Source: an uncultured Gammaproteobacteria bacterium (lineage in GTDB: Bacteria; Patescibacteriota; Patescibacteriia; UBA11705). Taken from it: a stretch of 64,000 nucleotides of DNA. The notes under the pieces are model-generated. The model saw only the letters and a list, made by a program, of their open reading frames with translations, was not told where the DNA came from and made no database searches. The stretch is taken from positions 56,237 to 120,236 of the forward strand of contig CAYPSS010000001.1 in NCBI GenBank assembly GCA_964413735.1, read 5' to 3'. The first letter of the stretch is position 1. Each line of letters starts with the position of its first letter. This document shows, piece after piece, positions 1 to 42,237 of this stretch. The position numbers were made by a program, and so were the translations under genes.

Positions 1-77
1 TCGGGATCAAACTTTTCAAATTTTAAGCTAAGTTCTTTGGCCGCATCACGTAAAACTTTGATGTGAGGCTTTTTCAT
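1..77 (-). CDS. N-terminal fragment of a gene running off the window edge; ATG overlaps the stop of the upstream ATP-grasp gene (ATGA), translation begins MKKPHIKVLRDAAKELSLKFEKFDP
   Basis: ATG at 77-75 on minus strand overlapping TGA at 76-74; same strand and operon as upstream ATP-grasp genes; product not identifiable from 25 residues. Confidence 0.3.
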   Translation of the reverse strand, partial: MKKPHIKVLRDAAKELSLKFEKFDP

Positions 78-1042: not shown

Positions 1043-1896
1043 ACTAAACTTTCCAAATATTGAATAATTTTCCCCGGAACATCTATTTTATTTTTTTGCA
1101 CAAATCTTTTAAATTGCGGTGACCGGTTTACTTCCAATACATATGGTTGTTCTTTTTCATCGAAAATAATATCCACGCCGGCAATATCCGCATTGGTCGC
1201 TTTAGCCGCCATTTCCGCGATTTTTTTCATTTTTGGCGTTAAATTTGACGCAAAAGCTCTTTGGGCCAAAGGAATTTGTTTACTTCTGGTCACCTTCAAA
1301 GTGTAACGCTTTAAAGCGCCAATGGCCAGACCATCAATAACCAAAACTCGATAATAATAATCACTATTTATAAACTTCTGAACAAAATATTTTTTAATCG
1401 GATTATTTCTTATAAATTCCTGAAATTTTTTTTCCGTGGAAATGATATGAATATTACGACCATGCATGCCATGAATATCCTTAATAATAATCGGATATTC
1501 GAATTTATACTTTGATTGACGCCACTCATCACAAGAAAAATAATAATAGGTATCAAGACAAGGCACGCCATGAAAACTAAGGGCCGAATACATGAATATT
1601 TTATCAAACGAATACACCTTTTTGTATAATTCCTTATCAACTACTGGGATATGATGACGATTCAAATGTTTGGCCAAAGTTTTTGCCTTGGCAAAATGCG
1701 GGTTGATTCCGCGGATTAAACAAATATCAAAATCAAGAACATTTTTAGCTTTATAATAAATATTAAATTTATTTTTTTCCAAAATAAATGATAAACAATT
1801 TATTGAGGCGCGAGTTGCCCGATGCCCGTATTTTTTTGCAGCTAAAATCAGAGAACGGTTTTCCCAGGAATTGGGACCAATGATCAAAATATTCAT
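1039..1896 (-). CDS. RimK-like ATP-grasp ligase (alpha-L-glutamate ligase family)
   Basis: 285-aa ORF; RimK-type ATP-grasp layout (IKDIHGMHGRNIHII, ADIAGVDIIFDEKEQPYVLEVNRSPQF); 4-bp overlap with upstream gene. Confidence 0.6.
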   Translation of the reverse strand: MNILIIGPNSWENRSLILAAKKYGHRATRASINCLSFILEKNKFNIYYKAKNVLDFDICLIRGINPHFAKAKTLAKHLNRHHIPVVDKELYKKVYSFDKIFMYSALSFHGVPCLDTYYYFSCDEWRQSKYKFEYPIIIKDIHGMHGRNIHIISTEKKFQEFIRNNPIKKYFVQKFINSDYYYRVLVIDGLAIGALKRYTLKVTRSKQIPLAQRAFASNLTPKMKKIAEMAAKATNADIAGVDIIFDEKEQPYVLEVNRSPQFKRFVQKNKIDVPGKIIQYLESLV

Positions 1897-1900
1897 TTTT

Positions 1901-3307: not shown

Positions 3308-4805
3308 TTTGAATTACTTTGCGAAAACGGTACAGTTCGAGCAAGCGCAAACCAGTCCATTTCCCAAGAGCGTAATTAATTAAAAAAGTTAATAAAATAA
3401 TTTCCGGATAACCAATAATTAAAATCCGCAAACTTTCCCAAGTAGCCAAATAATAACTCACCAAGGCCAAAATCAAAGTTTCCGCCACCAATTTAAAAGC
3501 AGTTTTACTGCCTAGTTCTATCTGCGCTTCCAAAAACTTTTCCGTAATAATCACCATAATCAAAATCGGAAAAATGGAAATACTGATAATACCGGTTTTG
3601 TTAAACAATGCCCCAACAAAAAACATTCCCAACACCGAAAAACTGACAATACTTAAAACCAATGACATTCGAGGCATATACATTAAACGAATTTTTCGCG
3701 CTACAAGACGACCAACCGTACCAATAATCAAAACCATGGCAAACAAAGCCAACCCGTATTTAATACCGGTCGCTATAAAGGAAACCGCCACCAATGATGG
3801 CGCATACATGCCAAAAGCTTTGATCCCAATGATCTGTCGAGAAAAAGCAATGATCGTGGCAATAATTGGCAAAATCAAAATCAAATAAATGGTATTGATT
3901 GACACGCCATTATTAACCATATAATCAATAATGTAAGATAAAAAATTCCACAGTTTTAGAGTATGCAAAGGTCTTTGAGTATGGGCACCCAAAATTTGAT
4001 ATGATTGATTGTTTTCTTTCAATTGATAGGTAATGCTTTCAGAATCCAAACGAGGGATCACTTCTTCATACCCGCCGGCATCCACCACCATCATATTTTT
4101 CGGCAACAATAAATTATAAACATTTTGGGCCAATCTTGAGGTCACTTTCAAATTTTCGCCGGTTAAAACATATATCCCCTTTTGATTAAACCCCAAACTC
4201 TTAATATCAGCCCCCTTGGCTAATTCTTGGCTGGCCCCAATCAATGCATTTAAGCCATAACTCCCACTGGTCCAAATAACAATATTTCTAGCCTGCCTAA
4301 TATCTGACCGATTTTCCACAATCGCTTGAATTAATAATGACTCACTTAAATAATCGGTATCTTGTTTGGGAATAATGATCGGAACAAGCAAAATCCCCAC
4401 CGAACTGGATTTTTCTTGCAACTCTTCCAACAATTCGGTGGATAATGATTCATCGGTAATTAACATCACAATATCTTTTTCCACCTTTACAATAATTTCA
4501 TCTTCCGCCATCAAATTGCCGTTAATGGCCGACAAAGAAACACGATAAACCCCGGGGTTGGCAAAAGTATGAGTTACTTCCACCCCGTTAGCAATTGAGC
4601 CATCACCAAAATCCCAAGTAAAACTGGTGTTTTCAATCACTTGATCGGTATTGGCGGAAAATACCACCGGTCTTTCCACTAAGACATTTTTATCTTCACC
4701 GGCTTCAATAGAAAAAATATTATTAACGGTTTGGGCCTGAGTAATAGAAGCAAAAAATAAAAATATTAAACTTAAACAAAAAAAGTAAATGCTACGCTTT
4801 ACCAT
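3282..4805 (-). CDS. Secreted PKD-domain protein fused to a C-terminal 7-TM integral membrane domain (7TM/inactive-transglutaminase-like partner of RimK-type ligases)
   Basis: 507 aa; signal peptide, PKD motif (FTWDFGDGS...HTFANPGVYRVSLSA), central globular region, then about 7 hydrophobic helices; overlaps and is co-oriented with the ATP-grasp genes. Confidence 0.5.
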   Translation of the reverse strand: MVKRSIYFFCLSLIFLFFASITQAQTVNNIFSIEAGEDKNVLVERPVVFSANTDQVIENTSFTWDFGDGSIANGVEVTHTFANPGVYRVSLSAINGNLMAEDEIIVKVEKDIVMLITDESLSTELLEELQEKSSSVGILLVPIIIPKQDTDYLSESLLIQAIVENRSDIRQARNIVIWTSGSYGLNALIGASQELAKGADIKSLGFNQKGIYVLTGENLKVTSRLAQNVYNLLLPKNMMVVDAGGYEEVIPRLDSESITYQLKENNQSYQILGAHTQRPLHTLKLWNFLSYIIDYMVNNGVSINTIYLILILPIIATIIAFSRQIIGIKAFGMYAPSLVAVSFIATGIKYGLALFAMVLIIGTVGRLVARKIRLMYMPRMSLVLSIVSFSVLGMFFVGALFNKTGIISISIFPILIMVIITEKFLEAQIELGSKTAFKLVAETLILALVSYYLATWESLRILIIGYPEIILLTFLINYALGKWTGLRLLELYRFRKVIQNVELPEKK

Positions 4806-7348: not shown

Positions 7349-8902
7349 ATGTTTATGACTTTTTGGCAAAAACTACAACATTTTAAATATCATAAAATCT
7401 TATTGGTGTTTTTGTTTTGTATTTTAATTTTTTCTTTATTTCAAGCACCGCATGGGATGGGCGACCCAGATGGCTTTTATCATGCCCGGCTATCGCAAAT
7501 GATGACTAACAACCTTACCTTCCAAGAATTCCCCTGGATGCAGTTTTCCACCCTAAATGAAAATTTCACTGATCATCATTTCTTGTACCACCTATTATTA
7601 ATGCCATGGACCATTGTTTTTGATCCTTTAATGGGCACAAAAATATTTACCGTTATTTTATCCTCATTATTCATTACTTGTTTTTATTGGTTTTTAACTC
7701 GCTATAATTTTCAATACAAACTACCATTATTATTTTTACTTTTTATTTTTACTTCGTTTTTCTTTCGTCTATCTTTAATCAAAGCCACCGCCTTATCCTT
7801 AATTATTTTGCTGTTTATAATTTATGCGATTTTTGAAAAAAAATATTCTCTGATTTTATTCCTGTCATTTATTTATGTTTGGAGTTACGGTGGATGGCTT
7901 TTGGGTTTGGTAGTTGGAGGAATTTACATTATTTCTGAAACAATTTATTTATTAATAAAAACAAAACCATCATGGAAATCCCTGATTAATAAAACATTCA
8001 ATTTTTCCAATAAAAAAATAATTTTCAATTTAGTCTTAGGCAACCTCATGGGGCTGATAATCAATCCCTACTTTCCTCAAAATATAAAATTTTACTGGCA
8101 ACAAATTTGGCAAATCGGTATTATCAACTATCAAAAAATAGTTGCCGTGGGAAATGAGTGGTTCTCCATTTCCTTATTAGACCTTGGGTCGCACTCGATT
8201 ATCACCACCGTTATAATTATCCTGACATTTACCTGGTGTATTATTAATTACAAAAAGATCAATCGCTTCACTATATTTTTCGCATTATTAACCATATTTT
8301 TCTTGCTTTTAACTTTGAAATCACGCCGTTATTTGGAATACTTTATTCCATTTTCCACTCTTTTTGTCGGATATTCATTTACCTTAAACAAACTCCAATT
8401 ACCAACTAATCGACAATCTATTATTGATTTTTTCAAAAGACCGTCCCATTTTATTATCAGTATAATAATTGTTATGATTTTATGTTTTCAATACGGTCAT
8501 AGCCTTTATAATGTAAAAAAAAACCTTAATCGTGACAAATACTTAAATTATCAGGGAGCCGCCCAATATTTGCAAAAACACACGCCTTATCATACCACGA
8601 TTTTTCATCCCGGGTGGGATGATTGGCCGGCTTTATTTTATTATAATCCCAACAATTACTATATTGGCGGGCTTGATCCCACCTTCACTTATTTATATAA
8701 TTCAAACCTTTATCAAAAATGGCAACAAGTGGTCCACCAACCGGCAAATAATGACTTTTATCAAATCATTAAAAATGACTTTCATGCTTCTTATGTTTTT
8801 GCGCCCAAACAATATAAACAATTTATAACAAATTTGAATAATAATTTTTATTTTAAACCGATTTATTCCGATGATCATGTGATTATTTATCAAGTCCTAT
8901 GA
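7349..8902 (+). CDS. Polytopic integral membrane protein, putative GT-C-fold glycosyltransferase-like
   Basis: 517 aa, more than 10 predicted TM helices; acidic DPDG motif in first extracytoplasmic loop; ATGA overlap with next gene. Confidence 0.45.
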   Translation: MFMTFWQKLQHFKYHKILLVFLFCILIFSLFQAPHGMGDPDGFYHARLSQMMTNNLTFQEFPWMQFSTLNENFTDHHFLYHLLLMPWTIVFDPLMGTKIFTVILSSLFITCFYWFLTRYNFQYKLPLLFLLFIFTSFFFRLSLIKATALSLIILLFIIYAIFEKKYSLILFLSFIYVWSYGGWLLGLVVGGIYIISETIYLLIKTKPSWKSLINKTFNFSNKKIIFNLVLGNLMGLIINPYFPQNIKFYWQQIWQIGIINYQKIVAVGNEWFSISLLDLGSHSIITTVIIILTFTWCIINYKKINRFTIFFALLTIFFLLLTLKSRRYLEYFIPFSTLFVGYSFTLNKLQLPTNRQSIIDFFKRPSHFIISIIIVMILCFQYGHSLYNVKKNLNRDKYLNYQGAAQYLQKHTPYHTTIFHPGWDDWPALFYYNPNNYYIGGLDPTFTYLYNSNLYQKWQQVVHQPANNDFYQIIKNDFHASYVFAPKQYKQFITNLNNNFYFKPIYSDDHVIIYQVL

Positions 8903-10530
8903 ACATCAAAACCATAATTCACAATTGGCGTAAACGTGAATGGCTCACCATGCTGGGGATTTCATTATTTTTGATTTTTTTGATAATTATCCCTTTAATT
9001 TACGGACAAATAATAAAAGAGCCAACCGAAACAATTAGCGGTATTCATGTTTTAGCTCCCGGAGATTATCCGATTTATTATTCTTATATCAACCAAATCA
9101 AAAATCATGGTTGGCTACTTTTCAATCAATTTACCACCGAAAACCAATCTACGGGTATCTTCAATATTGTTTGGTTATTAATTGGTAAATTCGCCAATCT
9201 TTTTAATTTAAACGCAATCTGGGCCTTGAAAATTTTTCAATTGCTCTGCATTCCCATTTTGGTTTTTTCATTATATTTATTCATTTCTATTTTTACCGCC
9301 AACATATTAAAACGTCGCTGGGCTTTGATTTTTTCTTGTTTGGGCAGTGGTTTGGGCGTATATTTTGAATCTTTGATTTATACGAACAATGATATTTATT
9401 TTCGCTCAGCTGACTTGTGGATGCCGGAGGCCACCATTTTCAACACCATTTCTCATGTGCCTCATTTTATTTTAGCCACGTCTTTGATTTTTTTGATTTT
9501 CACTTTTTCATTTTTAGCTCTAAATCAAAATAAATATTATTATACTGTTTGGGCCGGCATTTTGACTTTGCTTTTGTTCAATTTTCATCCTTATCATATT
9601 CCTTTAATATATTTAACATTTTCAGTTTATGGATTAACCAAACTTTTTGATAAAAAGCTTTTGTTCAAAGAATTAATAAAGCATTTATTTATAATAGGTC
9701 TTATTTCTCTGCCAAGTATTATTTATCATTTTTACACCCTCACTGATCCGGTGATTTTTGCCCGTAGCTTACAAAATATAACTCTTAGTTCCCCTTTATA
9801 CTTTTATATATTCGGTCTTGGTATTTACTTTTTACTGTGGAGCGGGGGCGTTTACTTGTTGTACAAAAAATGGCTACCTTCCAAATTTTATTTTCTCATT
9901 ATTTGGATTTTAATTGCTTATTTACTCGCCTATTTACCCGGTTGGCAATTCCAAAGACGCTCAATTCAAGGCGTTATTATTGCCGTAGTAATGCTAAGTA
10001 TAGAATACTTGTATTATCTGATTTTTATTAAACGATTATCGTTTTTTCAAAATCGTTTATTCAAACAACCATTTTTTCTTAGCTTAATAATTATTTTTAT
10101 TTTTGCTCCTTCGTCTTTTTTTCTGGAATTGCGAGAATTTTATAATTATAAACAAAAAGGTGAGTTTTTTTATTTAAACAAAGACAAAACCTATGGTTTT
10201 GAATTTTTACGCAAATTACCAAGAGGGAATGTTTTAAGCAGTCAAATTACCTCAGTTTTTATTCCCTCTCATACCGGGAAAAGTGTTTTTTTCGGTCATG
10301 CTCATGAAACTATTGATTCAAAAAGAAAAAACCAACAAAAACAAAAGTATTTCACCAACCAAATGACCGAATCGGAAGAATTAAACTTTTTAAAAAAATA
10401 TAATTTACATTATTTTTGGTGGGATGATATTTTGCAAATCAAATATCCCAACTTTGATCCTCAGACAAAAACGTATTTTCAATCCCTGGCAGTTTTTGAC
10501 AATCAAGAAATTTTTATTATTGAATATTGA
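8899..10530 (+). CDS. Polytopic integral membrane protein (putative envelope glycosyltransferase/polymerase-like)
   Basis: 543 aa, many TM helices, translationally coupled to upstream membrane protein. Confidence 0.45.
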   Translation: MNIKTIIHNWRKREWLTMLGISLFLIFLIIIPLIYGQIIKEPTETISGIHVLAPGDYPIYYSYINQIKNHGWLLFNQFTTENQSTGIFNIVWLLIGKFANLFNLNAIWALKIFQLLCIPILVFSLYLFISIFTANILKRRWALIFSCLGSGLGVYFESLIYTNNDIYFRSADLWMPEATIFNTISHVPHFILATSLIFLIFTFSFLALNQNKYYYTVWAGILTLLLFNFHPYHIPLIYLTFSVYGLTKLFDKKLLFKELIKHLFIIGLISLPSIIYHFYTLTDPVIFARSLQNITLSSPLYFYIFGLGIYFLLWSGGVYLLYKKWLPSKFYFLIIWILIAYLLAYLPGWQFQRRSIQGVIIAVVMLSIEYLYYLIFIKRLSFFQNRLFKQPFFLSLIIIFIFAPSSFFLELREFYNYKQKGEFFYLNKDKTYGFEFLRKLPRGNVLSSQITSVFIPSHTGKSVFFGHAHETIDSKRKNQQKQKYFTNQMTESEELNFLKKYNLHYFWWDDILQIKYPNFDPQTKTYFQSLAVFDNQEIFIIEY

Positions 10531-12199
10531 TTTTTTCCGATCCGCCAATTACTTTATAATCAATTATATCTTCACTAAAACCCACTTTATTTAAAACTGT
10601 TTTACCCATAATTTCAATTGGCTGTACTATAAAATGTTTTGTTTCCGGCAAAAAAGACAAGGACCTTTCCTGTCTTCCTTTGGCGATATGAATTATCTTT
10701 TCACTCAATACTTGGCCACTGCCATTTTTTTGTTGGATCAAATAATTACCCGGCTGAGAGAAATTAACTGTCCGGAAATGGCTGAGATCTAAATCAAAAT
10801 TTTCCACCCCTAACCCAATAAACGAGAAATCATCAATAAATGCCCGCGGTTTTTTCCGTACTAATAAATCATAGATGTAATTCTCCGCCTTACCAGAAAC
10901 ATTCTTGTTTTTCAACTGAAAAGTAAGAATATCCGCTTCGTTAAAAATCACATTATCAATTTGCTGCGGCACCATATATGGTTTATCCGAAAACTGCCGA
11001 AAACCTTGATCTACATATGATAAAGCGTATAAATTTTTATTACCCGTTAAGTAGGGCAAAAAGTCGTACCCGGCGACAACATTGGCTTCAGACGGAAGTT
11101 TATTTATTATTTCACTAAAAAAATATTTTTCTATCTCCGGTCGCTTAATTTTGTTAATTTCCATAATCGGACCAAGCGTAATAAACGAATAAATGGTAGC
11201 GCTAATTAAAAAAATTGGTAAAAACTTTTGATAAGCAATTAAAACTTTAATTTTATTGAGCAAAATCTCGTGCACCACATAAATCAAGACGATAAATCCA
11301 ACGACTAAAAATAATGTCGCATAATGTCCCCGCAATACGATGGTGCCAAGCCCGCCAATTAAGACATATTGCGCATAAATCGGGATTAAAGGGAATAAAT
11401 ATTTTAACCGCAAAAATGGTAAAAAACCAAATGGCAAAAATATCCCGAACAACAAGTCCAGTTGATCCAAAGTAAAAATTTTTGACCAAAAATCTAGGTA
11501 ATAAATACCATATTTATATGCCCCCTGATTGAAAAATGATATTAAAACCAAGGATAAAATAAACCACAACAAACCACTCACAAAAGCAAAAATACTATAA
11601 CGATTAATTTTCCGTTCTTTTAATAACAAACCTAAACCAAAAAACATTATGATTAGGGACACATCCTCACGAACCATCAAGGAAGCCAAAGAAAAAATAA
11701 CAAAGGGAACCCATGCTTTCTTTAAGTAAAAATAAAACGAAAAAAACAAAAAAAACAAAGCCATGGGCAAAACATGAAATTCAAACAAAGCCATTTGCCA
11801 AACAAACGGATTTAACAAATATAAAACAACAAACAACCAGGCATATTTTTTATCTGTCAAAACTTGACGGGCGATCAAAAATAACGGCCAGCCGGCTAAA
11901 CAAATAAACGCTGCTTGAATAAACAATAAAAAAATCGGCGAAGAAAAACCCCAGTATCCCAAAGTCAATGGCAAAAGCCATAATTCCAAATGATCCCCAA
12001 AATATACCCCGCCCTGAATCGTGGAATAAAACCAATTACCATTAATGGTATTTTGTAAAACATTACTATAAATAGCCAAATCCAAACAATTATAACGAAA
12101 ATTGTTAAATTTATAAATTATCAAGCCAAACATTAAACCAAAAGCTACCGCAATTATAGTGAACAGTAATAAATTTTGTTTTCGATTTGATAAATTCAT
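10517..12199 (-). CDS. Polytopic membrane protein, DUF2079-like
   Basis: 560 aa; N-terminal TM then LDLAIYSNVLQNT...GGVYFGDHLE block resembling the DUF2079 membrane family; multiple TM helices. Confidence 0.45.
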   Translation of the reverse strand: MNLSNRKQNLLLFTIIAVAFGLMFGLIIYKFNNFRYNCLDLAIYSNVLQNTINGNWFYSTIQGGVYFGDHLELWLLPLTLGYWGFSSPIFLLFIQAAFICLAGWPLFLIARQVLTDKKYAWLFVVLYLLNPFVWQMALFEFHVLPMALFFLFFSFYFYLKKAWVPFVIFSLASLMVREDVSLIIMFFGLGLLLKERKINRYSIFAFVSGLLWFILSLVLISFFNQGAYKYGIYYLDFWSKIFTLDQLDLLFGIFLPFGFLPFLRLKYLFPLIPIYAQYVLIGGLGTIVLRGHYATLFLVVGFIVLIYVVHEILLNKIKVLIAYQKFLPIFLISATIYSFITLGPIMEINKIKRPEIEKYFFSEIINKLPSEANVVAGYDFLPYLTGNKNLYALSYVDQGFRQFSDKPYMVPQQIDNVIFNEADILTFQLKNKNVSGKAENYIYDLLVRKKPRAFIDDFSFIGLGVENFDLDLSHFRTVNFSQPGNYLIQQKNGSGQVLSEKIIHIAKGRQERSLSFLPETKHFIVQPIEIMGKTVLNKVGFSEDIIDYKVIGGSEKINIQ

Positions 12200-12225: not shown

Positions 12226-12258
12226 AAAACAAAAAAGCCCCCTAAAGGGGCTTTTGTA
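12226..12258 (-). terminator. Rho-independent terminator downstream of pilin-like gene 12263..12658
   Basis: aaagccccctaaaggggcttt hairpin with flanking A/T runs. Confidence 0.55.
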
Positions 12259-12262
12259 ATTT

Positions 12263-12658
12263 TTATCGTCCGGCAGTTCCGGTTGCTTCTGTTAATCTTG
12301 AAACCACAAAGTTGGTAATCCCATAAGCGGCCAAAATAATCACCAAACCAATAATGGCGTTGGTTAAATATTTTTTACCTTGTTCCACCCCATCTTTTTC
12401 ACCACCGGCAGTCATATACTTAAACCCGCCAATAATAATCATAATCACCATCACCACGCCCAAAAAACTTAAAATAATATTAATGATTCGACCAATAATT
12501 ACCGGCAAATCATCTGATGGAGTTTCCCCTGGACCATAAATTCCTTCACCGGTATTTACTAAAGTCCCTTGAATGTCCACTTGGGCCAAAACGCTTGGCG
12601 CCACAAGCAAGAGACAAACCAGCAACCCAAGGAAATACCCGAAAAGTTTTGTCTTCAT
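12263..12658 (-). CDS. Small secreted two-TM pilin-like protein (TrbC/VirB2-type T4SS pilin-like family), paralog 1
   Basis: 131 aa; Sec signal peptide, short variable region, conserved C-terminal block IIGRIINIILSFLGVVMVIMIIIGGFKYMTAGGEKD...AIIGLVIILAAYGITNFVVSRL shared by 8 tandem paralogs. Confidence 0.5.
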   Translation of the reverse strand: MKTKLFGYFLGLLVCLLLVAPSVLAQVDIQGTLVNTGEGIYGPGETPSDDLPVIIGRIINIILSFLGVVMVIMIIIGGFKYMTAGGEKDGVEQGKKYLTNAIIGLVIILAAYGITNFVVSRLTEATGTAGR

Positions 12659-12691
12659 AATTTTATTATGTTAATTATTTATATTTAATTA

Positions 12692-13087
12692 TTAATCAAT
12701 TAAATAAGCTGACTCCATTAATCGTCTTACCACAAATGAGGTAATAGAATAAGCCGTCACACAAATTACCAGGCCGATAATCGCATTGGTAATGGTTTTC
12801 TTGGCTTCCTCTAATTTGGTTTTATCCCCTTCGGCCGTCATATATTTCACCCCGGCCAAAATAATGAGCACCATCATCACTACCGCTAAAACCGCCAAAA
12901 CAATGGAAATAATTCGACCAATCACGGCCGGCAAATACGGCGCGTCCGCATGTCCGTAACTTTCATTACCAAAAGTACCCATGGCATTACCCGCTTGTTC
13001 CTGCAAAGAACTGGCCGCCAAAACTTCCCCGCCTAGAAAAAGCGCGAAAATTAATAGCAAAGTAATTAATATTTTTTTATTAAACAT
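12692..13087 (-). CDS. Pilin-like two-TM protein, paralog 2
   Basis: 131 aa; same architecture (VIGRIISIVLAVLAVVMMVLIILAGVKYMTAEGDKTKLEEAKK...IIGLVICVTAYSITSFVVRRL). Confidence 0.5.
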   Translation of the reverse strand: MFNKKILITLLLIFALFLGGEVLAASSLQEQAGNAMGTFGNESYGHADAPYLPAVIGRIISIVLAVLAVVMMVLIILAGVKYMTAEGDKTKLEEAKKTITNAIIGLVICVTAYSITSFVVRRLMESAYLID

Positions 13088-13303
13088 ATGATTAAAAAAG
13101 TAATAAGCAAGAAAGTGCTAAGCGAGATAAGTAAGACAAGTGAGACAAGTAAAACGAGTGAAACGAGTATTAAAAGGGGTTAGGGATAAGGGATTAGGGG
13201 GGCTAGAAAATGAGGGAATAAAAATAAAAACCATATTCTCACTCTGAACTTGTTTCAGAGTCTGTGCTATGATCTGGACAAATAAAAAGATCTATTACAG
13301 TGT
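13088..13303. repeat. Modular intergenic repeat block (gtaag-rich block, G-tract block, 29-bp palindromic element)
   Basis: gtaagacaagtg/aagcaagaaagt motifs at 13100-13170 also found at 21962-22035 and 24150-24215; G4-type motif ggggttagggataagggattaggggggg at 13176-13202; ttctcactctgaacttgtttcagagtctg at 13237-13265 identical to 24428-24456. Confidence 0.7.
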
Positions 13304-13699
13304 CTATGAGGTCGGGGAAATTAAAGCATTAATCAAAATTTGATTCATTACATAACTGGAAATTGAATACGCGAGCAAAATTATAATAAGGCCAATAATA
13401 CCGTTTTTGATCCAATCCTTAGCCTTTTCCACTTCATCCTTTTTTCCACCGGCCGTTAAATATTTATAACCACCCATTAAAATAATCACCGTTAAAACAA
13501 CACCGGAAACCACCAATACACCATTCACGATCCGTCCAATCACCACCAATAAATTTGACTCTGTTCCCTCGCCATAAACCGCTTCACCGCCCTGTTGTAG
13601 ATTTTGATTAGCGGTTTCAAAAACATTTTCCGCTTGAACCGACGTAAAAGCGCCAAACAATATTATAGTTAAGATCAAAAAAACTAATACTTTATTCAT
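13304..13699 (-). CDS. Pilin-like two-TM protein, paralog 3
   Basis: 131 aa; conserved block VIGRIVNGVLVVSGVVLTVIILMGGYKYLTAGGKKDEVEKAK. Confidence 0.5.
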   Translation of the reverse strand: MNKVLVFLILTIILFGAFTSVQAENVFETANQNLQQGGEAVYGEGTESNLLVVIGRIVNGVLVVSGVVLTVIILMGGYKYLTAGGKKDEVEKAKDWIKNGIIGLIIILLAYSISSYVMNQILINALISPTS

Positions 13700-13709
13700 A
13701 TTGCTTTAA

Positions 13710-14090
13710 TTATTGTTGAACATTTATTATCAATTGAATCACTTGAGTGGAAATCGCGTAAGCCAAACCAATAATAATTACGCCGATAATACTGTTGGTT
13801 AAATAAGCTTTGGCCTTGGTAATATTCTTAGAATCTTCACCGGCGAGCATATATAAGACTCCACCATAGATTATTAAAATCATTAAAACAAAACCAACCA
13901 AAGCCAGTACCCCATTAATAATGCGTCCCACTAACAATGTCAAATTGCCAGAGGCTCCAACATCAAATCCGGAAGCATCAGCAGTTGCATTTAATCCGGT
14001 GTCACTGGGTTCAAAAGCAATTACTGTCGTGATTCCCAGAGTAAAAACTATAATTAGTAATAAGAAACTGAATACAAATATTTTTTTCAT
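13710..14090 (-). CDS. Pilin-like two-TM protein, paralog 4
   Basis: 126 aa; conserved block LVGRIINGVLALVGFVLMILIIYGGVLYMLAGEDSKNITKAK. Confidence 0.5.
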   Translation of the reverse strand: MKKIFVFSFLLLIIVFTLGITTVIAFEPSDTGLNATADASGFDVGASGNLTLLVGRIINGVLALVGFVLMILIIYGGVLYMLAGEDSKNITKAKAYLTNSIIGVIIIGLAYAISTQVIQLIINVQQ

Positions 14091-14095
14091 AAATT

Positions 14096-14524
14096 TTATT
14101 TCATGGTTTGTGATCCCAAAAGATTAATAACATAATTGGCAATCCCATAACTCAAAGCAATCAAACCAAGGCCCAGCGCCGCATAAATAATGTAATTTCG
14201 TCCGGTACTAACCTTGTCCGAATCGCCACCGGCAAGCATCCAAGTTAATCCGCCATATAAAACCAACACAAAGAAAATCACGCCGACCATGGATAAAATC
14301 GCTTTGATAATATCACCAATTTTATTTTGTACCAATACTTGACCGTAAGCACCTTCCGAACCTTCTGGTAATAAATTGGCCGTCTTGGCGGTTTCGTCCA
14401 ACCCTTCGGTAATAGACTTAGCCGATACCATAAAACCGAAAAAAAACATTACTAAAATGGCGATTATTGTAATAATTTTTATTTTCATAATTGCTTCCGC
14501 TGAATTCAAAAAATTTAAATTCAC
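14096..14524 (-). CDS. Pilin-like two-TM protein, paralog 5
   Basis: 142 aa; conserved block IGDIIKAILSMVGVIFFVLVLYGGLTWMLAGGDSDKVSTGRN. Confidence 0.45.
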   Translation of the reverse strand: MNLNFLNSAEAIMKIKIITIIAILVMFFFGFMVSAKSITEGLDETAKTANLLPEGSEGAYGQVLVQNKIGDIIKAILSMVGVIFFVLVLYGGLTWMLAGGDSDKVSTGRNYIIYAALGLGLIALSYGIANYVINLLGSQTMK

Positions 14525-14562
14525 CGGAAGCAGCGGATATCAATCCGCTACTTTATAAAAAA

Positions 14563-14937
14563 CTAAGTACCCATGGTTGCTTCCATCAATCGACTGATAA
14601 CAAAAGTGGTGATAGCGTAAGCACTGAGAATAATCACCAAGCCGATAATACCGGAAATAATGTATTTTCGCGCATTATCAATTTTTTCTTGCGCTCCACC
14701 AGCCGTCATATACTTGAAACCACCGATCAAAATAATTACTACCGCCACAACGCCCAAAAAGCCCAAAGCCACATTGATAATGGCACCAACTGTTGTTCGA
14801 ATGTCTTTTGAACCTAGGATCAACTCATTTCCAATGGCATCAGTTCCAAATGGATCGTTTATTTGCGCCATAACCGGCATTACCAAAGAAAACGCAAAAA
14901 CCGCCACCACCAGAAACATTGTTAATTTTTTTAACAT
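14563..14937 (-). CDS. Pilin-like two-TM protein, paralog 6
   Basis: 124 aa; conserved block VGAIINVALGFLGVVAVVIILIGGFKYMTAGGAQEKIDNARK. Confidence 0.5.
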   Translation of the reverse strand: MLKKLTMFLVVAVFAFSLVMPVMAQINDPFGTDAIGNELILGSKDIRTTVGAIINVALGFLGVVAVVIILIGGFKYMTAGGAQEKIDNARKYIISGIIGLVIILSAYAITTFVISRLMEATMGT

Positions 14938-15011
14938 TTTTTTTTAGTTATTTATTAAAATTTGTTTATATATATAGCGACCTTTGGTTGTTTATATTAT
15001 AGCAAAATTCA

Positions 15012-16544
15012 TTATAATTTTGAAATAATGAAGTTGAGGACAGAATAACTAAGGAAAATAGCCGCCAAACCCAAAATGGCCCAAAGGAAAGTATCCTTGG
15101 CCTCTGTCACCTTTTTCTTATCGCCACCACTGAACATATAACTCAGTCCACCATAAACAAAAATTGCAAAAGCAACCGAGCCAATAATACCAAAAACATA
15201 CTTTAATAATTCTCCAATAATCAAGGGCACACTTTTCCCTGTACCAACCAAACCAGAGGAACTAAACTTCTGAATTTGCGCCACCATATCATTATACAAA
15301 GCCGTCCCCTTGCCTTCTTCGCCACCTATTTTTGGCGCCTCAGCTTTTAACTCATCACACTGCGCTTCTCGTTCGGCAATTTTGGTTTGGTCATCAAAAG
15401 CCGCGGCCGCTTCTTTACATTTTAAAAGTGCCGCCGCCTCGGCCGTTGTTGCCGATATTTCATTACAACTATTTCTTAAATCCTCAATATTATTAGAAGT
15501 TTCTGATAATTCCAAACATTTATTTTTAATTTTTGCCACAATATCCGACATCCCGATACCTAAATTTTTTACAGTTATACTGGCCTGACCACCCCAACTT
15601 GATTTAACACTTATCAAAGCTCCGCCTGATAATCCTCCAGTAATCGTAATGGTCTTACCATTATTACTACTAATACTAACAACTGATGATGATGATGTTT
15701 CCCAAGTAAAAGCAGTTTCAACTCCAACATTTTCAAAATTACTGGAAGCGGTCAATTGGATTTGTTGATCGTTGTTTATTGAAACTTCATTATTCGTAAC
15801 AGTAATTTCTGCTGGTAAAATCATTTGTAAAGAATCTTTTTGTGGAAACATCGCAAAATCTCCTCGCACATAACTATAAGCATCATTACATGATTGGGTT
15901 GGTTCAAATTCCAACAGTGAATCATAGAGGTAATTTGCCTGTTCCACCATAGGATAATTTTCAGCATGATTATAAGTAACCATCTTAAGGTAAGCGGCCC
16001 AAATACTAGAAACTTCTGAAAAGCTTTGAGCTTTTTGTAAATTTTCTTTTAAGCTGTTACTAAGCTCTGAATCAATATTTAATACCCCCTCAACAATAAC
16101 TTCTTTATCATATTTGGAAAAATTATTAGGAGAAGCAATATAAATTAAACGTTGAGGTATTGTAGTATTAAAAACTGCACAACCACGATATTCTTTATAA
16201 TCCACCTCGGTTTTTGATTTACTATTAGGGAATCGGGTAAAACAGAGATCTTTATTGATACTTGCTTCGGCAATTAAATCCCAAGTATATCGATTATAAT
16301 AATCAACAAATAAACGTTCCGGTGATTGGCGATATTCATTGGTAAAAGTATTAAAACAAGAATTAATACATTCTGTTTCAGAAGTGGCATCAATCAAGGA
16401 AGTTGAATCTTTGGTTACAGCAAAAGATTCCCGATCTGCATCAGCCACCTTCAAATAACAACAACATTTTGTCGCCTGAGCAACCGACAAATCAAAAATA
16501 AAAAAACTACAAACAATAATTAAACCGATTAAATATTTTTTCAT
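15012..16544 (-). CDS. Large pilin-like family member: signal peptide, Cys-rich region, Big_2-like Ig domain, coiled coil, C-terminal two-TM pilin module (putative tip/adhesin pilin)
   Basis: 510 aa; C-terminal LIIGELLKYVFGIIGSVAFAIFVYGGLSYMFSGGDKKKVTEAKD...LGLAAIFLSYSVLNFIISKL matches the neighbouring small paralogs; Ig-like segment AFTWETSSSSVVSISSNNGKTITITGGLSGGALISVKSS. Confidence 0.5.
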   Translation of the reverse strand: MKKYLIGLIIVCSFFIFDLSVAQATKCCCYLKVADADRESFAVTKDSTSLIDATSETECINSCFNTFTNEYRQSPERLFVDYYNRYTWDLIAEASINKDLCFTRFPNSKSKTEVDYKEYRGCAVFNTTIPQRLIYIASPNNFSKYDKEVIVEGVLNIDSELSNSLKENLQKAQSFSEVSSIWAAYLKMVTYNHAENYPMVEQANYLYDSLLEFEPTQSCNDAYSYVRGDFAMFPQKDSLQMILPAEITVTNNEVSINNDQQIQLTASSNFENVGVETAFTWETSSSSVVSISSNNGKTITITGGLSGGALISVKSSWGGQASITVKNLGIGMSDIVAKIKNKCLELSETSNNIEDLRNSCNEISATTAEAAALLKCKEAAAAFDDQTKIAEREAQCDELKAEAPKIGGEEGKGTALYNDMVAQIQKFSSSGLVGTGKSVPLIIGELLKYVFGIIGSVAFAIFVYGGLSYMFSGGDKKKVTEAKDTFLWAILGLAAIFLSYSVLNFIISKL

Positions 16545-16547
16545 ATA

Positions 16548-16913
16548 TTATTGCGTGGCAATAGCCGATATTACCACTTTCAAAATTATTCCCCCACCCA
16601 GAACAATCAAAAGGCCGATAATAGCGTAAACAATCGTGTCCTTAGCTTTTTTAATAAAATCCGGTTTAGCCCCACCGGCAATATACATGAGACCACCGGC
16701 CACCAAGGCCACCAACGCCAAACTTCCGGAAATACCTAAAGCAAAAGTAACGATGTTAATTACCGTTTCCTCGAAAACCGTCAGATTACAGGTAGTTAAA
16801 CTGCCGGTTTTGCATTCGGTTGGCACCAAGCCTTGGAAAGTCGCACCCTGCGCCTGAAAACCAAAACCCATCAATATCATCATCAAGCTGAAAATTAAAA
16901 TTTTATTTTTCAT
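16548..16913 (-). CDS. Pilin-like two-TM protein, paralog 8
   Basis: 121 aa; conserved block FALGISGSLALVALVAGGLMYIAGGAKPDFIKKAKD. Confidence 0.45.
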   Translation of the reverse strand: MKNKILIFSLMMILMGFGFQAQGATFQGLVPTECKTGSLTTCNLTVFEETVINIVTFALGISGSLALVALVAGGLMYIAGGAKPDFIKKAKDTIVYAIIGLLIVLGGGIILKVVISAIATQ

Positions 16914-16920
16914 ATTTAAT

Positions 16921-18363
16921 TTATTTCATGGTTTGCTGAACTTTTTGCACCGCCAAATCAATCACTTGTCGTGAAGTAAACTCACCGGTTTGCAAAGAAT
17001 CAATCATTTCTTGAAATATTTTTTCCGTTGCCGGTTGGTTTTTTCCACGATACCAAGATTTAGCGGTCAAAGTTTGTTCTACGAAAACCGCGACCGCATC
17101 ATTTTCCAATTGTTTATCATACAAGGAGCGCAGGGCGGTTGGCTTTTGAGTCTTCTCCAAATACTTTTCCGCTTGTTTTTGCTCGGTCATAAAACGAATG
17201 AAATCCCAAGCATAATTTTTGTTCTTTGATTTATTGGAAACACTATGCACCCAATAATTGGCATAATTCAATTCTTCATAACCTTGAACTTGTAACATCG
17301 GCGCAATATCAAAGTTTAATTTTGGCGCTTGAGAAACAATAATCGGACGATGATAAGCATAACCCAAAAAATAAGCGGACTTACCATCAATAAAAGCCTT
17401 TAATGAATTATCCATTTTGTTATTCCAAGTATATGATTTCAAAATCGGATCCGCAAAAGAAGCATAAAACTCCAAAGCATTGATGGCCGGAGCCTTGGTA
17501 ATTTCCGGCTGTCCGGCTAATTCACGAGGAATACGATGAAAATTAACATTTCCCGCTTCATCTACCATTTCCGCTTTTAATTGCATCATCAATAACGACA
17601 AAATATCAAAACTGCGTTCAATGTTGGTCGATGTCCCCAGCGGGATTCCGGCTAACAAAATATTATTATTGTTATCAACCCGTCTGATTTTCTCAATCTG
17701 TGATTCAAGCTCCGTCCAATATTGCGCCGGCAAAGGAATTTTCGCATTATTCAAAATATCTTTATTATAATACAAAGCCAAAGTATCTAAACTTAAAGGC
17801 AACCCGAAGACTCGATAATTCCACTTGGGATCATTTTCCGTGCCATCATTATAGCGCCACACCACATCACGCGAAACCGTATCCCCAAACATGGTTTCAA
17901 TTTGTTTGGGCGTATACATTTTTTGTTGTTGAATCACTATTCGCTCTTCTTGTTTAACCGTTCCGGTCACAATTTTAAAAGGTAAATTCACCGAAGCCGG
18001 CATTGGTTCCAATAAATTAAGATATTCATTAACCCAAGTATTATGCAAAGAAAAAATATCCGGGCCTTGATCCAAAGCAAAGGATTTAATCAATTCATCC
18101 TTGTATTCTTCCGGTTTCAACTGTTTAAACTCAATTGAAACATTGGGGTGCAAGGCGCGATAATCATTAATAATTTCATTATATGCTTCGCGCGTATCAT
18201 GCACTGTCCAAAAAACCAATTTTACCGGAGTTAATGCGCCCGTTTCACCTTGTTTAGAACAACTTAATCCGATCGTCGTAAACATGACCACCAAAAGAAA
18301 CAAAGACATTATTCGAATTTTTTGTTTTTTATTAGATAAAATAGCCCGAATGATTTTATTCAT
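16921..18363 (-). CDS. Lipoprotein extracellular solute-binding protein (ABC transporter SBP family 1, sugar-type)
   Basis: 480 aa; signal peptide with lipobox-like GLSC; overall SBP_bac_1 style composition; no permease genes adjacent. Confidence 0.6.
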   Translation of the reverse strand: MNKIIRAILSNKKQKIRIMSLFLLVVMFTTIGLSCSKQGETGALTPVKLVFWTVHDTREAYNEIINDYRALHPNVSIEFKQLKPEEYKDELIKSFALDQGPDIFSLHNTWVNEYLNLLEPMPASVNLPFKIVTGTVKQEERIVIQQQKMYTPKQIETMFGDTVSRDVVWRYNDGTENDPKWNYRVFGLPLSLDTLALYYNKDILNNAKIPLPAQYWTELESQIEKIRRVDNNNNILLAGIPLGTSTNIERSFDILSLLMMQLKAEMVDEAGNVNFHRIPRELAGQPEITKAPAINALEFYASFADPILKSYTWNNKMDNSLKAFIDGKSAYFLGYAYHRPIIVSQAPKLNFDIAPMLQVQGYEELNYANYWVHSVSNKSKNKNYAWDFIRFMTEQKQAEKYLEKTQKPTALRSLYDKQLENDAVAVFVEQTLTAKSWYRGKNQPATEKIFQEMIDSLQTGEFTSRQVIDLAVQKVQQTMK

Positions 18364-18367: not shown

Positions 18368-19237
18368 TTATTTTAAATTCAAACTGCGAAGGTATTTACG
18401 AAATTCATTTTTTACATCTTGATGTTTCAAAGCAATTTCAATATTAGCTTTCAAATAACCGAATTTTGAACCAGTGTCGTAATATGTTCCATCAATCAAG
18501 CGCGCATAAACCGATCGTTTTTTCATTAATTTAATAATGGCATCCACCAACCAAAGCTCGCCACCCTTGCCCAAAGTTGTTGATTCCAGCGCTTCAAAAA
18601 TATCCGGGGTTAAAATATAACCGCCGATTGATCCCAGCAATGATGGGGCCTTTTCCGGTCCCGGCTTTTCCACCAATTTTTTCACTTCAAAGACATCGTT
18701 GCCCAAACTTATTCCATCAATCACTCCATAACGTTTTGTTTCCTGTTTAGTAATTTGTTTGACCGTTAATACCGGATCACCGTATTTATTAAAAGTATCA
18801 ATCAGTTGACTTAATCGTGTTTTTTTCTTTGTCACCCAAAATTCATCACCCCAAACCACCGCAAACGGTTCATTGCCAATCAAACTCTTGGCACACAAAA
18901 CCGGGGTTCCATTTCCATACGGTCCTTTTTGACGAATAAAAATGAAATTCGCCATATCCGCAATTTTCTTGATTTCATCACGTTCTTGTTCTTTGCCAAC
19001 ACTTTTCAAATAATGCTGAATTTCAAAGTTATAGCTAAAATGATCTTCCACCGCTCGTTTACCGCTACCGGTGACTAAAATAATATCTTCGATTCCCGAA
19101 GCCACCGCCTCCTCTACCACATATTGAATAATCGGTTTATCTACAATTGGAAGCATTTCCTTTGGTTGTGCCTTGGTCGCCGGCAAAAACCTGGTTCCAT
19201 AACCGGCCACCGGAATTACAATTTTTTTGATTGCCAT
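18368..19237 (-). CDS. galU: UTP--glucose-1-phosphate uridylyltransferase
   Basis: 289 aa; IKKIVIPVAGYGTRFLPATKAQPKEMLPIVDKPIIQY N-terminal signature, VEKP...GGYIL. Confidence 0.85.
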   Translation of the reverse strand: MAIKKIVIPVAGYGTRFLPATKAQPKEMLPIVDKPIIQYVVEEAVASGIEDIILVTGSGKRAVEDHFSYNFEIQHYLKSVGKEQERDEIKKIADMANFIFIRQKGPYGNGTPVLCAKSLIGNEPFAVVWGDEFWVTKKKTRLSQLIDTFNKYGDPVLTVKQITKQETKRYGVIDGISLGNDVFEVKKLVEKPGPEKAPSLLGSIGGYILTPDIFEALESTTLGKGGELWLVDAIIKLMKKRSVYARLIDGTYYDTGSKFGYLKANIEIALKHQDVKNEFRKYLRSLNLK

Positions 19238-19371: not shown

Positions 19372-20583
19372 TTAACCGTTTTTCAATGCATATTGCCAAA
19401 TCTTTTCCGCAACATTTATGGGTGCTCCCTGCGTTGGGAAATGATGCATATCAATATAAGGTAAAGTGTTGTTTTCCAGAAAAATAAATGATTGGTCTTG
19501 ATAATGTTTTTTTTCATCTTCACAAATAAAGTCTAGGCCACAAACAACGGCCGACAAAGATTGTGATACCTTTTCACAAAGATTTTTGGTTTCCGGATGT
19601 AATGATTCCGTCACATTAACAATTTCCGCCCCCGCCCCAAGCGTGATTTTTTGTCCTAAAACAATTTTTTGGCCCATCGATAAAACATCATCCAGCCTTA
19701 ATCCGAGAGAATTTAAATAAATTTCCAAATCATCATTAACTTCAATTTGATGTAAAGTGGCATCACGTCGCTGTTTTGGCAAACGCCAAGGATGTTTATT
19801 ATAATTTGCAATTAAACTTTTAATAGTGTTTTCACCATCACCGTAAATAGTGGCCGGCATTCGCTTGGCACAAGCCACCATTTGACCATCAATCACCACT
19901 GCGCGATAAACATGACCAATTGCGAAACGCTCGACAATCACCTTGGCGCTGATTTGTTTGGCGATTCTCAAAGCCTGATCAAAATCTTCCCAACTTTTAA
20001 TCTGAAAAAAAGCATGGCGACTGAGTGATGAATCATTGGGCTTTACCACCAAAGGAAAACCGATTTTCCGGCCAAAAGTTTTGGCTTTTTTTATCGAAAA
20101 AAATGATTGCCCGGGAGCAATCGGCCAATTATTTTTTTCCAAGACTTTTCGGAAATATTCTTTGGTATCCAGATTTTTGCTTTGGGTGACAATATCAAAC
20201 AAAGGTAATTCCTGGAAATATCTTGTCTTACCTTGATTATGCCAAGAAAAAAATGATAAGTATGATTTATTTTTATTTTTCAATTGATAAGCTCTGATAT
20301 CCAATTGTAATTTTTTCGCTTCATCCCAAATAACCAAAGTTCGATTATAAAACTGCCTTCGATCAATTTGCGAGGTGACTTCCACCAAATCAAATAATCT
20401 CAAAATAAAAACCAAAAAACGAATAAACAAAATGTCAATTGATTCAATGATTCTTTTTGGAAAAAAATTAGTGAACCTTTCCGCCAATGGATCAATAATC
20501 AAAGTTTCCAAATAAGAAACCATCTTATCATGCCAATGATTTTCCTCTAACGGATAGCAATGGGGACACTTTTTATTTTTCAT
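19372..20583 (-). CDS. ATP-grasp ligase, CphA-like C-terminal ATP-grasp with about 190-aa N-terminal extension
   Basis: 403 aa; C-terminal half parallels the 74..1042 protein (MPATIYGDGENTIKSL, GAEIVNVTESLHPET, LENNTLPYIDMHHFPTQGAPINVAEKI). Confidence 0.55.
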   Translation of the reverse strand: MKNKKCPHCYPLEENHWHDKMVSYLETLIIDPLAERFTNFFPKRIIESIDILFIRFLVFILRLFDLVEVTSQIDRRQFYNRTLVIWDEAKKLQLDIRAYQLKNKNKSYLSFFSWHNQGKTRYFQELPLFDIVTQSKNLDTKEYFRKVLEKNNWPIAPGQSFFSIKKAKTFGRKIGFPLVVKPNDSSLSRHAFFQIKSWEDFDQALRIAKQISAKVIVERFAIGHVYRAVVIDGQMVACAKRMPATIYGDGENTIKSLIANYNKHPWRLPKQRRDATLHQIEVNDDLEIYLNSLGLRLDDVLSMGQKIVLGQKITLGAGAEIVNVTESLHPETKNLCEKVSQSLSAVVCGLDFICEDEKKHYQDQSFIFLENNTLPYIDMHHFPTQGAPINVAEKIWQYALKNG

Positions 20584-24139: not shown

Positions 24140-24460
24140 TGATTGTCAATAAAGTGGGTAAGGGAGTAAGCAAGAAAGTTGTAAGTAGTAAGTAAGACAA
24201 GTGTGACGAGTAAGAAAGTAAAAAGTTTTTCCTGTTATTACGAGAGGTTTCACTTTGTGAAACCTCGTGGCAATCTAAAAGAAGTCTTTCCCAAAATTAT
24301 TTTAGATTGCCACGTCGTTCCGTTTCACGGAACTCCTCGCAATGACAGGTGGGGTGGACTGTTTCACAGAACTCCTCACAACGATCCTCTTTGTCTACAA
24401 AACGAGGCGAGCAAACAGGACGTAATTTTCTCACTCTGAACTTGTTTCAGAGTCTGAGTT
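24140..24460. repeat. Modular intergenic repeat block (gtaag-rich block, palindromic block, 29-bp element)
   Basis: Reverse-complement copies of motifs at 21800-22040; ttctcactctgaacttgtttcagagtctg at 24428-24456 identical to 13237-13265. Confidence 0.7.
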
Positions 24461-34617: not shown

Positions 34618-34619
34618 AT

Positions 34620-41621: not shown

Positions 41622-41738
41622 TTTTTCTCCTTGTTAAGGAACGAAGAACTATTGATTTTATTATAATTTGAGATTTTTGTCAATATTGAGAATGATTATT
41701 TAAAACAAAAGAGCAGTGAAATAATTCACTGCTCTTTA

Positions 41739-42234: not shown

Positions 42235-42237
42235 ACG

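Follow-up and report, generated by a model that had tools for sequence, protein, structure and literature searches.

The eight-gene array

We analysed a 64,000-nt stretch of contig CAYPSS010000001.1 (hereafter the window) from a Falkowbacteria-like, ultrasmall bacterium, in which a preliminary description, made by reading the letters, had pointed to eight tandem genes for small pilin-like proteins beside a gene for a substrate-binding protein (SBP). The locus is an array of a type already published for Patescibacteria, where such arrays have been described several times (PMC12102498, PMC10633639, PMC12857230). The window is chromosomal, with about 36% G+C, and contains dnaA and dnaN at 37987–40757, where the cumulative GC skew turns; the array lies about 21 kb away from dnaA. 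All eight open reading frames (ORFs) are present at the boundaries claimed for them, co-oriented on the minus strand between 12263 and 16913, and the SBP gene occupies 16921–18363 on the same strand, 7 nt before the first pilin gene. We number the genes pilin 1 to pilin 8 in the direction of reading.

Every one of the eight proteins scored above the gathering score (26.6 bits) of the T4SS_pilin family PF18895 (T4SS, type IV secretion system), with 26.8–50.2 bits and E-values from 6e-6 to 3e-13; eight such matches within 4.7 kb are far beyond chance. Pilin 1 (16548–16913, minus strand, as for all the genes below; 121 aa) is the most divergent copy and a marginal case (26.8 bits; 21.1 bits for TrbC), with a Cys34/Cys42 pair in its exposed segment. 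Pilin 2 (15012–16544) is by far the longest at 510 aa, with the PF18895 match at residues 437–506 and a Big_2 match at residues 246–324. The remaining six are pilin 3 (14563–14937, 124 aa, 40.3 bits), pilin 4 (14096–14488, 130 aa, 33.8 bits), pilin 5 (13710–14090, 126 aa, 35.0 bits), pilin 6 (13304–13699, 131 aa, 50.2 bits), pilin 7 (12692–13087, 131 aa, 46.5 bits) and pilin 8 (12263–12658, 131 aa, 45.5 bits). For pilin 4 the ORF list also offers a GTG start at 14524, giving 142 aa; gene callers and the n-region of the signal peptide prefer the ATG start, and the protein is likewise called at 130 aa in contigs L009 and L070–L075.

The copies are 26–51% identical to pilin 8, and their alignment reproduced the C-terminal consensus that the preliminary description had proposed. 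It also bore out the contrast drawn there between a variable N-terminal part and a C-terminal module that is conserved: averaged over all pairs, identity is 15.9% in the exposed stretch that follows the signal peptide, 38% in helix 1, 37% in the loop and 42% in helix 2. Hydropathy analysis gave the same layout for all eight, with an n-region rich in K, an h-region, a cleavage site of AxA type at about residue 23–25 and two hydrophobic helices, and an AlphaFold2 model of a 131-aa member (65-sequence alignment) agreed, placing helices at residues 51–83 and 88–125 with predicted local distance difference test (pLDDT) values above 90. The signal peptide and two-helix topology read from the letters thus hold in 8 of 8 copies.

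The suggestion that these are T4SS pilin-like proteins is upheld by the PF18895 matches, and NCBI annotates relatives as "pilin"; we regard membership of all eight in this family as very likely. The proteins were also correctly set apart from type IV (PilA-type) pilins, a candidate that we rejected: the signal peptides are of AxA type, the two hydrophobic helices are C-terminal, there is neither a class III signal peptide (G|F/M-T-L-I-E) nor a single N-terminal helix with a globular head, and no type IV pilin family appeared in the Pfam output for the array proteins.

A profile built from the eight modules retrieved 84,480 representatives at 50% identity (E up to 0.001), and at the top of this search stood proteins from outside the window (P0123, P0127, P0129, P0135 and P0136) that each carry 2–17 tandem PF18895 modules. 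Reading these sequences directly confirmed the chains, for example 8 modules in 820 aa and 17 in 1775 aa. In ABY1 relatives the module usually forms the N-terminal end of a protein of 610–3443 aa with Big_5, TIG, Big_7 and fn3 domains; the closest relatives of pilin 8 in Uhrbacteria, Magasanikbacteria and other ABY1 (loci L010–L062, e.g. L015:9923-11860 and L017:9992-18522) are such fusions. A conserved signal peptidase I (S26) gene is present in 27 of the 57 loci related to pilin 8, where HisRS, YqeY and S21 genes also occur. Pilin modules that are fused to large Ig-rich ectodomains or repeated 2–17 times per chain are thus common, which suggests that PF18895 modules probably associate with one another and serve as a base for large ectodomains.

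Every pilin of the array has a counterpart of its own in a related genome

Among named relatives Candidatus Falkowbacteria RIFOXYA2_FULL_35_8 (class ABY1) is the closest, and its locus reads NUDIX, a 401-aa protein, galU, SBP, eight pilins, pgi, yebC, ruvC and an ATP-grasp cluster, an order similar to that of the window. When the eight window pilins were scored by local alignment against the eight Falkowbacteria pilins, the resulting matrix was strictly diagonal. Pilin 8 is 64% identical to position 8 of that array; pilin 1, in spite of its divergence, finds its best match at position 1, which retains the Cys pair; and positional orthologs were likewise found for pilins 3, 5, 6 and 7. The diagonal matrix implies that all eight paralogs predate the split of the two lineages and that each has been kept in place.

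Between strains the small pilins are 88–100% identical. Pilin 3 is 100% identical in strain L009, and of the five substitutions that separate strains in pilin 4, four are located in its exposed N-terminal part. The variation between strains is concentrated in the head of the 510-aa member, described below. The preliminary description had taken eight diversified copies in tandem as a sign of antigenic variation, a proposal that these comparisons do not support, given that each copy has a positional ortholog in Falkowbacteria and that the small copies differ so little between strains. What is new here is that each copy has its own conserved 1:1 counterpart, a pattern which favours old, non-redundant subunits. 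Such a fixed set of orthologous paralogs speaks for a structure built of several subunits rather than for a repertoire of variants.

Pilin 2 carries a head that is exchanged between strains

Pilin 2 consists of a signal peptide, a Cys-rich head, an Ig-like domain, a helical stalk and the pilin hairpin. AlphaFold2 places the Ig-like domain at residues 237–327, the stalk at 332–429 and the hairpin at 439–509 (mean pLDDT 65.7), with the head poorly modelled (pLDDT below 50 for residues 84–158 and 187–220). The Cys-rich, Big_2-like, coiled-coil ectodomain that had been read from the letters is recognisable in the Big_2 match (25.8 bits against a cut-off of 22.8), in 12 ectodomain cysteines and in the predicted helical stalk. 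Its description as adhesin-like is likewise consistent with the Big_2 domain and with the Foldseek search of the 510-aa model, which gave weak matches only, to Ig-like domains of SraP, LigA and invasin. Close relatives are scarce: 5.8 billion clustered proteins contain only one other relative of pilin 2, and when the head was the sole query, nothing but the protein itself came back.

Contigs from metagenomes of the same population provided three head alleles: A (the window, L071 and L072), B (L009) and C (L070). The exchanged part, or head cassette, lies at 15537–16457 (minus strand), encodes residues 30–336 including the Ig-like domain, and has no DNA similarity to the corresponding region of L009, while the flanks are 90–96% identical. 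Over these residues the alleles are 25.6% (A–B), 24% (A–C) and 61.8% (B–C) identical; B and C are mosaic with respect to each other, with identity falling from 86% in the first half to 38% in the second, and Cys, Trp and Gly scaffold positions are conserved. On either side the change is abrupt. Residues 1–29 are identical as protein in all three alleles, and the stalk and pilin module (residues 337–510, encoded at 15015–15536, minus strand) has 100% amino-acid identity between A and B (L009), with 2 synonymous differences in 525 nt, and 13 nonsynonymous differences in allele C. Strains with different heads are otherwise about 96–100% identical in the stalk, the pilin module and most neighbouring genes.

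Both the abrupt edges and the mosaic pattern indicate that the head cassette is exchanged by recombination. We considered a mechanism of the diversity-generating retroelement type and rejected it, since indels distinguish the alleles over about 300 aa and the Pfam scans showed no reverse transcriptase. The window holds no silent head cassettes or alternative head copies. The Falkowbacteria ortholog at position 2 is a protein of 199 aa that has the stalk and pilin module at 40% identity and no head. Thus one copy of the array carries a surface head that is replaced wholesale between near-identical strains, with at least three mosaic alleles, an observation which is, like the 1:1 counterparts, new. 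This exchanged, adhesin-like head is a candidate determinant of host specificity.

A sugar-type SBP gene is linked to such arrays in ABY1

The gene directly before the array encodes a sugar-type ABC substrate-binding protein (SBP_bac_1 75.7 bits, SBP_bac_8 57.4 bits), whose relatives in the PDB are sugar and oligosaccharide SBPs. The lipoprotein SBP that had been proposed at this place is borne out by the domain match, and its N-terminus (...TTIGLSC) fits a lipoprotein signal by sequence reading, so it is probably a lipoprotein. An SBP gene precedes small-pilin arrays in at least eight loci. Orthologs 37–43% identical lie immediately upstream of small-pilin arrays in L013, L036, L052, L053 and L064, and the gene is upstream of the array in L009 (99% identical) and L067 as well; the gap is 3–40 nt in most loci and 139 nt in L067, from Falkowbacteria. 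Consistent co-location of an SBP lipoprotein gene with such arrays in class ABY1 is a further new finding; the arrays of Saccharimonadia and Microgenomatia are without the SBP. No ABC permease or ATPase gene adjoins the SBP gene.

Four nt upstream of the SBP gene lies a gene for a GalU-like nucleotidyltransferase (18368–19237, minus strand; NTP_transferase 91.6 bits), which may form one transcription unit with it; galU precedes the SBP gene in five loci (L009, L013, L052, L053 and L067). A second strain-variable hot spot is found 1 kb from the SBP gene, at 19372–20583 (minus strand), where a cyanophycin-synthetase-like ATP-grasp protein of 403 aa is only 63.5% identical to that of strain L009 while the flanking genes are 99% identical.

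Transcription signals

The gaps between genes are 3–10 nt for galU–SBP–pilin 1–pilin 2 and for pilins 4–5–6, 74 nt before pilin 3 and before pilin 4, and 216 nt before pilin 7. Upstream of pilin 3 there is a weak promoter-like site at 14996–15024 (minus strand; TTCAAA, 17 nt and a TG-extended TATAAT), a consensus match only, and promoter-like sites overall were not enriched over shuffled sequence. The 216-nt gap after pilin 6 contains a hairpin (13241–13261, minus strand) followed by a T-rich tract. An exact second copy of this hairpin lies at 24433–24453 (minus strand), within a shared 30-nt intergenic stretch, CAGACTCTGAAACAAGTTCAGAGTGAGAA, present at 13233–13262 and 24425–24454, and all Logan short-read contigs of the array break at this element. 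The hairpin may be an internal terminator and the element, perhaps, a dispersed terminator-like repeat. After pilin 8 the array ends with a strong intrinsic-terminator-like hairpin (12233–12255, minus strand; 10-bp stem and T run). Gaps, promoter-like site and hairpins together outline a putative operon structure, with galU–SBP–pilin 1–pilin 2, pilins 3–6 and pilins 7–8 as the presumed sub-operons. The nine genes of 12263–18363 show no recognisable Shine-Dalgarno motif within 25 nt before their start codons; the upstream sequence is A/T-rich.

Other features of the window

The array has the SBP gene, galU, a DUF2079 gene and pgi as neighbours, and genes for housekeeping or the envelope make up its surroundings. 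Between the array and pgi, at 7349–12199, are three large polytopic membrane proteins of 560 aa (DUF2079), 543 aa and 517 aa, the last two with no Pfam or PDB match; PDB sequence searches with the DUF2079 protein and the 543-aa protein found nothing. The Falkowbacteria locus is without the three proteins at that position. One might speculate that they modify surface proteins. Further on, at 74–4805 (minus strand), and in L001, three to four RimK-like and sugar-transfer-associated ATP-grasp ligases accompany a membrane protein with PKD and 7TM_transglut domains, a cluster whose synteny is conserved with Falkowbacteria.

On the other side of the array, at 31858–36686 (minus strand), a type III restriction-modification pair (a ResIII helicase of 919 aa and an N6_N4_Mtase/TypeIII_RM_meth protein of 688 aa) adjoins a HARE-HTH/PD-(D/E)XK protein. 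A cluster of signal-peptide proteins at 43026–52409 (minus strand), among them one of 1533 aa with ten DUF7483 repeats (235 bits) and others that are Big_6- and Big_13-like, is probably another surface or adhesin locus. It is bracketed by two tRNA-Leu(UAA) genes (42147–42234 and 52566–52648) in the regions 41735–42956 and 52462–52648, where we also found a 204-nt tandem duplication (41735–42142), a GIY-YIG-like ORF (42238–42555) bracketed by an exact 39-nt repeat that overlaps the tRNA gene end, and 84-nt tandem repeats overlapping a tRNA-Gly. The secreted-protein cluster between the tRNAs may be an integrated island.

A proposed hetero-oligomeric filament with an adhesin-bearing subunit

The reading we prefer, to which in its full form we give about an even chance, is that a T4SS builds a hetero-oligomeric filament from these proteins, with pilin 2 as its adhesin. 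Each subunit would be exported by Sec and processed by signal peptidase, as its sequence features indicate, and its two-helix hairpin would be inserted in the membrane with both ends outward, leaving the variable N-terminal segment exposed, as the topology suggests. The subunits would then be extracted from the membrane and the eight co-assembled into one surface filament or stub, a step for which family context and fusions argue; chains in which 2–17 modules are fused point to co-assembly by an argument of the Rosetta-stone type. Assembly would fall to a T4SS of monoderm type (VirB4, TrsD, PrgI), with its genes elsewhere in the chromosome as they are in relatives. The seven small subunits would be structural, with pilin 3 or pilin 8 as the likely major one (we infer pilin 3 to be a candidate), and pilin 2, judging by its architecture and allele pattern, an adhesin-bearing minor or tip subunit that is docked by its invariant stalk and pilin module and whose Ig-like, Cys-rich head would contact the host-cell surface. 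Exchange of the head cassette between strains would then adjust specificity for hosts or receptors, or allow escape from something that targets the head. The SBP, presumably co-transcribed, would be a conserved accessory of ABY1 arrays and may capture a host-derived saccharide at the contact site.

In the one Patescibacterium tested, the T4SS together with its pilin series is essential for epibiotic growth (PMC10633639), and reviews call the function of Patescibacteria T4SSs and pilins completely unknown. In the Saccharibacteria locus L058, a homologous array of five genes adjoins genes for VirB4 (P-loop_TraG 94.9 bits), PrgI, a TraC-like protein and a protein of 947 aa; the member of that array nearest to pilin 8 is 37% identical to it (tblastn E 2e-14). 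The adjacency to virB3/virB4 seen at L058 is absent from the array studied here. In Falkowbacteria GWF2_43_32, which has the SBP–array layout (L064), VirB4 and TrsD are genes 572–573, and the sole listed VirB2 is gene 711 (Table S3), about 140 genes off and flagged as not near VirB4 (PMC12102498); gene 711 may or may not belong to the L064 array. The NCBIfam model NF045849 (pilin-like protein of a Mycoplasma integrative and conjugative element, ICE) scored below its equivalog cut-off of 40 for pilin 8 (38.1 bits), pilin 3 (37.4) and pilin 2 (18.4) and did not match pilin 1; its alignment covers 67 of the 80 model positions (E about 1e-9). A tblastn search of 72,556 plasmids with pilin 8 found nothing.

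A number of results weigh against the filament. The TrbC family PF04956 was not reached: five of the eight proteins scored 15.3–21.1 bits against a gathering score of 27.9, and the other three gave nothing. An hhalign comparison with four annotated VirB2/TrbC proteins from plasmid records, Agrobacterium VirB2 among them, gave a probability of 1.2% (E 0.043), with only helix 1 aligned in register. A PDB profile search with the eight-paralog alignment returned only a designed helical protein and fragments of G-protein-coupled receptors, no pilin, and Foldseek with the small-pilin model found no significant match, a helical hairpin being too generic a fold to be informative. Of the kinship with TrbC/VirB2 proposed in the preliminary description, then, the part that concerns PF18895 stands, while PF04956 stays below threshold and profile–profile comparison with VirB2 is not significant. 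Because homology to classical VirB2 is not demonstrable, the VirB2 label rests on PF18895 and on the genomic context in other genomes. Many homologs outside the window carry both PF18895 and TrbC matches (precomputed).

The genes of the machinery point the same way. We scanned the 64-kb window (main non-overlapping ORFs of at least 100 aa) with 10 kb to its left and about 6.4 kb to its right (the flanks from metagenome contigs), out of a 318,699-bp contig, and found no VirB4, VirB6 or VirD4 domain in any of these, in agreement with the earlier remark that the window has no VirB4/VirD4 ATPase. Table S1 of the published survey (PMC12102498) gives as VirB4-negative two relatives whose arrays are linked to an SBP gene, namely Falkowbacteria RIFOXYA2_FULL_35_8 and Uhrbacteria RIFCSPHIGHO2_02_FULL_53_13; both are incomplete, scaffold-level metagenome-assembled genomes (MAGs). 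It is difficult to see how very large ectodomain fusions would be accommodated in the dense packing of a pilus shaft, and according to published accounts a T4SS pilus has yet to be observed on any Patescibacterium.

Alternative explanations

Several of these points would be expected if the PF18895 hairpin were instead a membrane anchor and oligomerisation module, and the array encoded a fixed hetero-oligomer in the cytoplasmic membrane that is independent of any T4SS and displays short peptides together with the pilin 2 adhesin. This is the main rival, possible though rather doubtful. The absence of VirB4 nearby and from the two related MAGs is in keeping with it, as is the lack of significant similarity to a proven pilin; moreover, the ABY1 module is mostly fused to ectodomains of 610–3443 aa among housekeeping neighbours (HisRS, signal peptidase I, YqeY, S21), and chains of up to 17 modules resemble polytopic membrane proteins. 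At the same time, seven of the members expose only about 20–30 residues and would have little to display, and the homologous Saccharimonadia arrays are embedded in T4SS clusters and essential there. The many family members that also match the TrbC model, and the Mycoplasma ICE pilin-like family that falls just under its cut-off, speak for pilins as well.

The steady linkage to the SBP gene (gaps of 3–40 nt in most loci) raises the thought that the SBP joins the two-helix proteins in a single apparatus for uptake or sensing, in which hairpins build a non-canonical SBP-dependent transporter or receptor and the "pilin" label is misleading. In its favour, no ABC permease or ATPase adjoins the SBP, and there are sub-threshold matches to DctQ and TctB, small subunits of TRAP/TTT transporters (tripartite ATP-independent periplasmic and tripartite tricarboxylate transporters). 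These matches, however, are far below the cut-offs and typical of hydrophobic composition, the Saccharimonadia and Microgenomatia arrays do without an SBP, and in L067 the gap widens to 139 nt. We know of no transporter made of two-helix subunits and consider this explanation improbable.

Quite improbable, too, is a role of the eight copies as a store of variants for antigenic or phase variation of a single pilin, alternately expressed or recombined like Neisseria pilE/pilS. Diversified tandem copies whose exposed N-terminal segment is the most variable part do recall such systems, and the amplified virB2 genes of Bartonella and Anaplasma offer a precedent. This explanation is disfavoured by the 1:1 positional orthologs of all eight copies at genus-level divergence, by the conservation of the small pilins between strains, by the window's lack of silent cassettes and by the fact that all genes are full-length with their own start codons and signal peptides; copy-number change and recombination of the Bartonella trwL kind are not seen here.

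That these are holin-like, bacteriocin or immunity-type proteins, as their small size, two hydrophobic helices and tandem arrangement might suggest, is extremely unlikely given the cleavable signal peptides, the curated cut-off reached by the small members only for PF18895 and for no holin or immunity family, a conserved housekeeping neighbourhood without phage, bacteriocin or transporter genes, and the very large size of the family (the 84,480 representatives above).

A wider and more tentative generalisation, which we hold to be rather unlikely, would make the PF18895 hairpin a general "plug-in" of Patescibacteria for swappable host-recognition heads, such as that of the 510-aa protein and the giant Big_5, TIG and fn3 proteins of relatives, on a hetero-oligomeric, T4SS-built surface organelle of about eight fixed, specialised subunits; with the sugar-binding lipoprotein it would amount to a host-contact and nutrient-capture device of ABY1 epibionts, and head exchange between strains would be the genetic determinant of host range.

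Comparison with known systems

The nearest known systems are the VirB2 arrays of Patescibacteria. In a screen of 3,035 Patescibacteria genomes by means of PF04956, PF18895 and other profiles, Quinonero-Coronel et al. (2025) reported 441 such arrays of 2–11 pilin genes in 383 assemblies, with a mean identity of 25% and a maximum of 54%; pilins were near virB4 in 1135 of the 1948 assemblies having both (PMC12102498). An array was defined there as at least two pilin genes, in tandem or with one non-pilin gene between them, and low identity between copies, and the eight adjacent genes described here, 26–51% identical to pilin 8, fall within this definition. Wang et al. (2023) showed for Southlakia epibionticum ML1 that the row of pilin genes within its T4SS cluster is essential (PMC10633639), and a 2025 review describes the T4SSs of Patescibacteria as the only Gram-positive-type ones with VirB2-like pilins (PMC12857230). 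With these arrays, including those of S. epibionticum ML1 and the "Sec secreted array" of TM7x, ours shares PF18895, the tandem layout (8 genes here, 2–11 there), the low identity between copies and the chromosomal site.

It differs from them in that it is not beside virB4, is linked to an SBP gene and comes from class ABY1, while the surveyed arrays are most abundant in Microgenomatia and Saccharimonadia (PMC12102498), and in that one member has a strain-variable ectodomain of 400 aa; no adhesins were detected in the survey dataset (PMC12102498). For Falkowbacteria GWF2_43_32 we count seven pilin genes in array L064, against the one VirB2 of Table S3 (PMC12102498). In the text of the survey the words "fused" and "fusion" lead only to a remark on VirB3–VirB4, and poly-pilins do not turn up under these words (PMC12102498).

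Like VirB2, TrbC and TraA, the array proteins have a signal peptide, two hydrophobic helices, a short loop with a conserved basic residue and a similar size; they differ in their monoderm host, in PF04956 scores below the cut-off and in the absence of a PDB pilin match. The two-helix module also aligns with the Mbov_0395 family (NF045849), which by its name comes from a mycoplasma conjugative element and not from a chromosomal array.

The Trw T4SS of Bartonella offers a further parallel, as it too has tandem, diversified VirB2-type genes (trwL) that are probably co-expressed; it is without a coupling protein and has been proposed to act in host-specific adhesion, with specificity conferred by variable surface components (PMC2883598). 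Its host is a diderm and its pilin genes adjoin an MPF-T system, and copy-number change and recombination blur orthology among the trwL genes, whereas here orthology is clean, with eight genes in both arrays (PMC2883598). Finally, the variable adhesin of Bartonella is a separate VirB5 protein (trwJ, amplified), while in the array described here it is fused to a pilin (PMC2883598).

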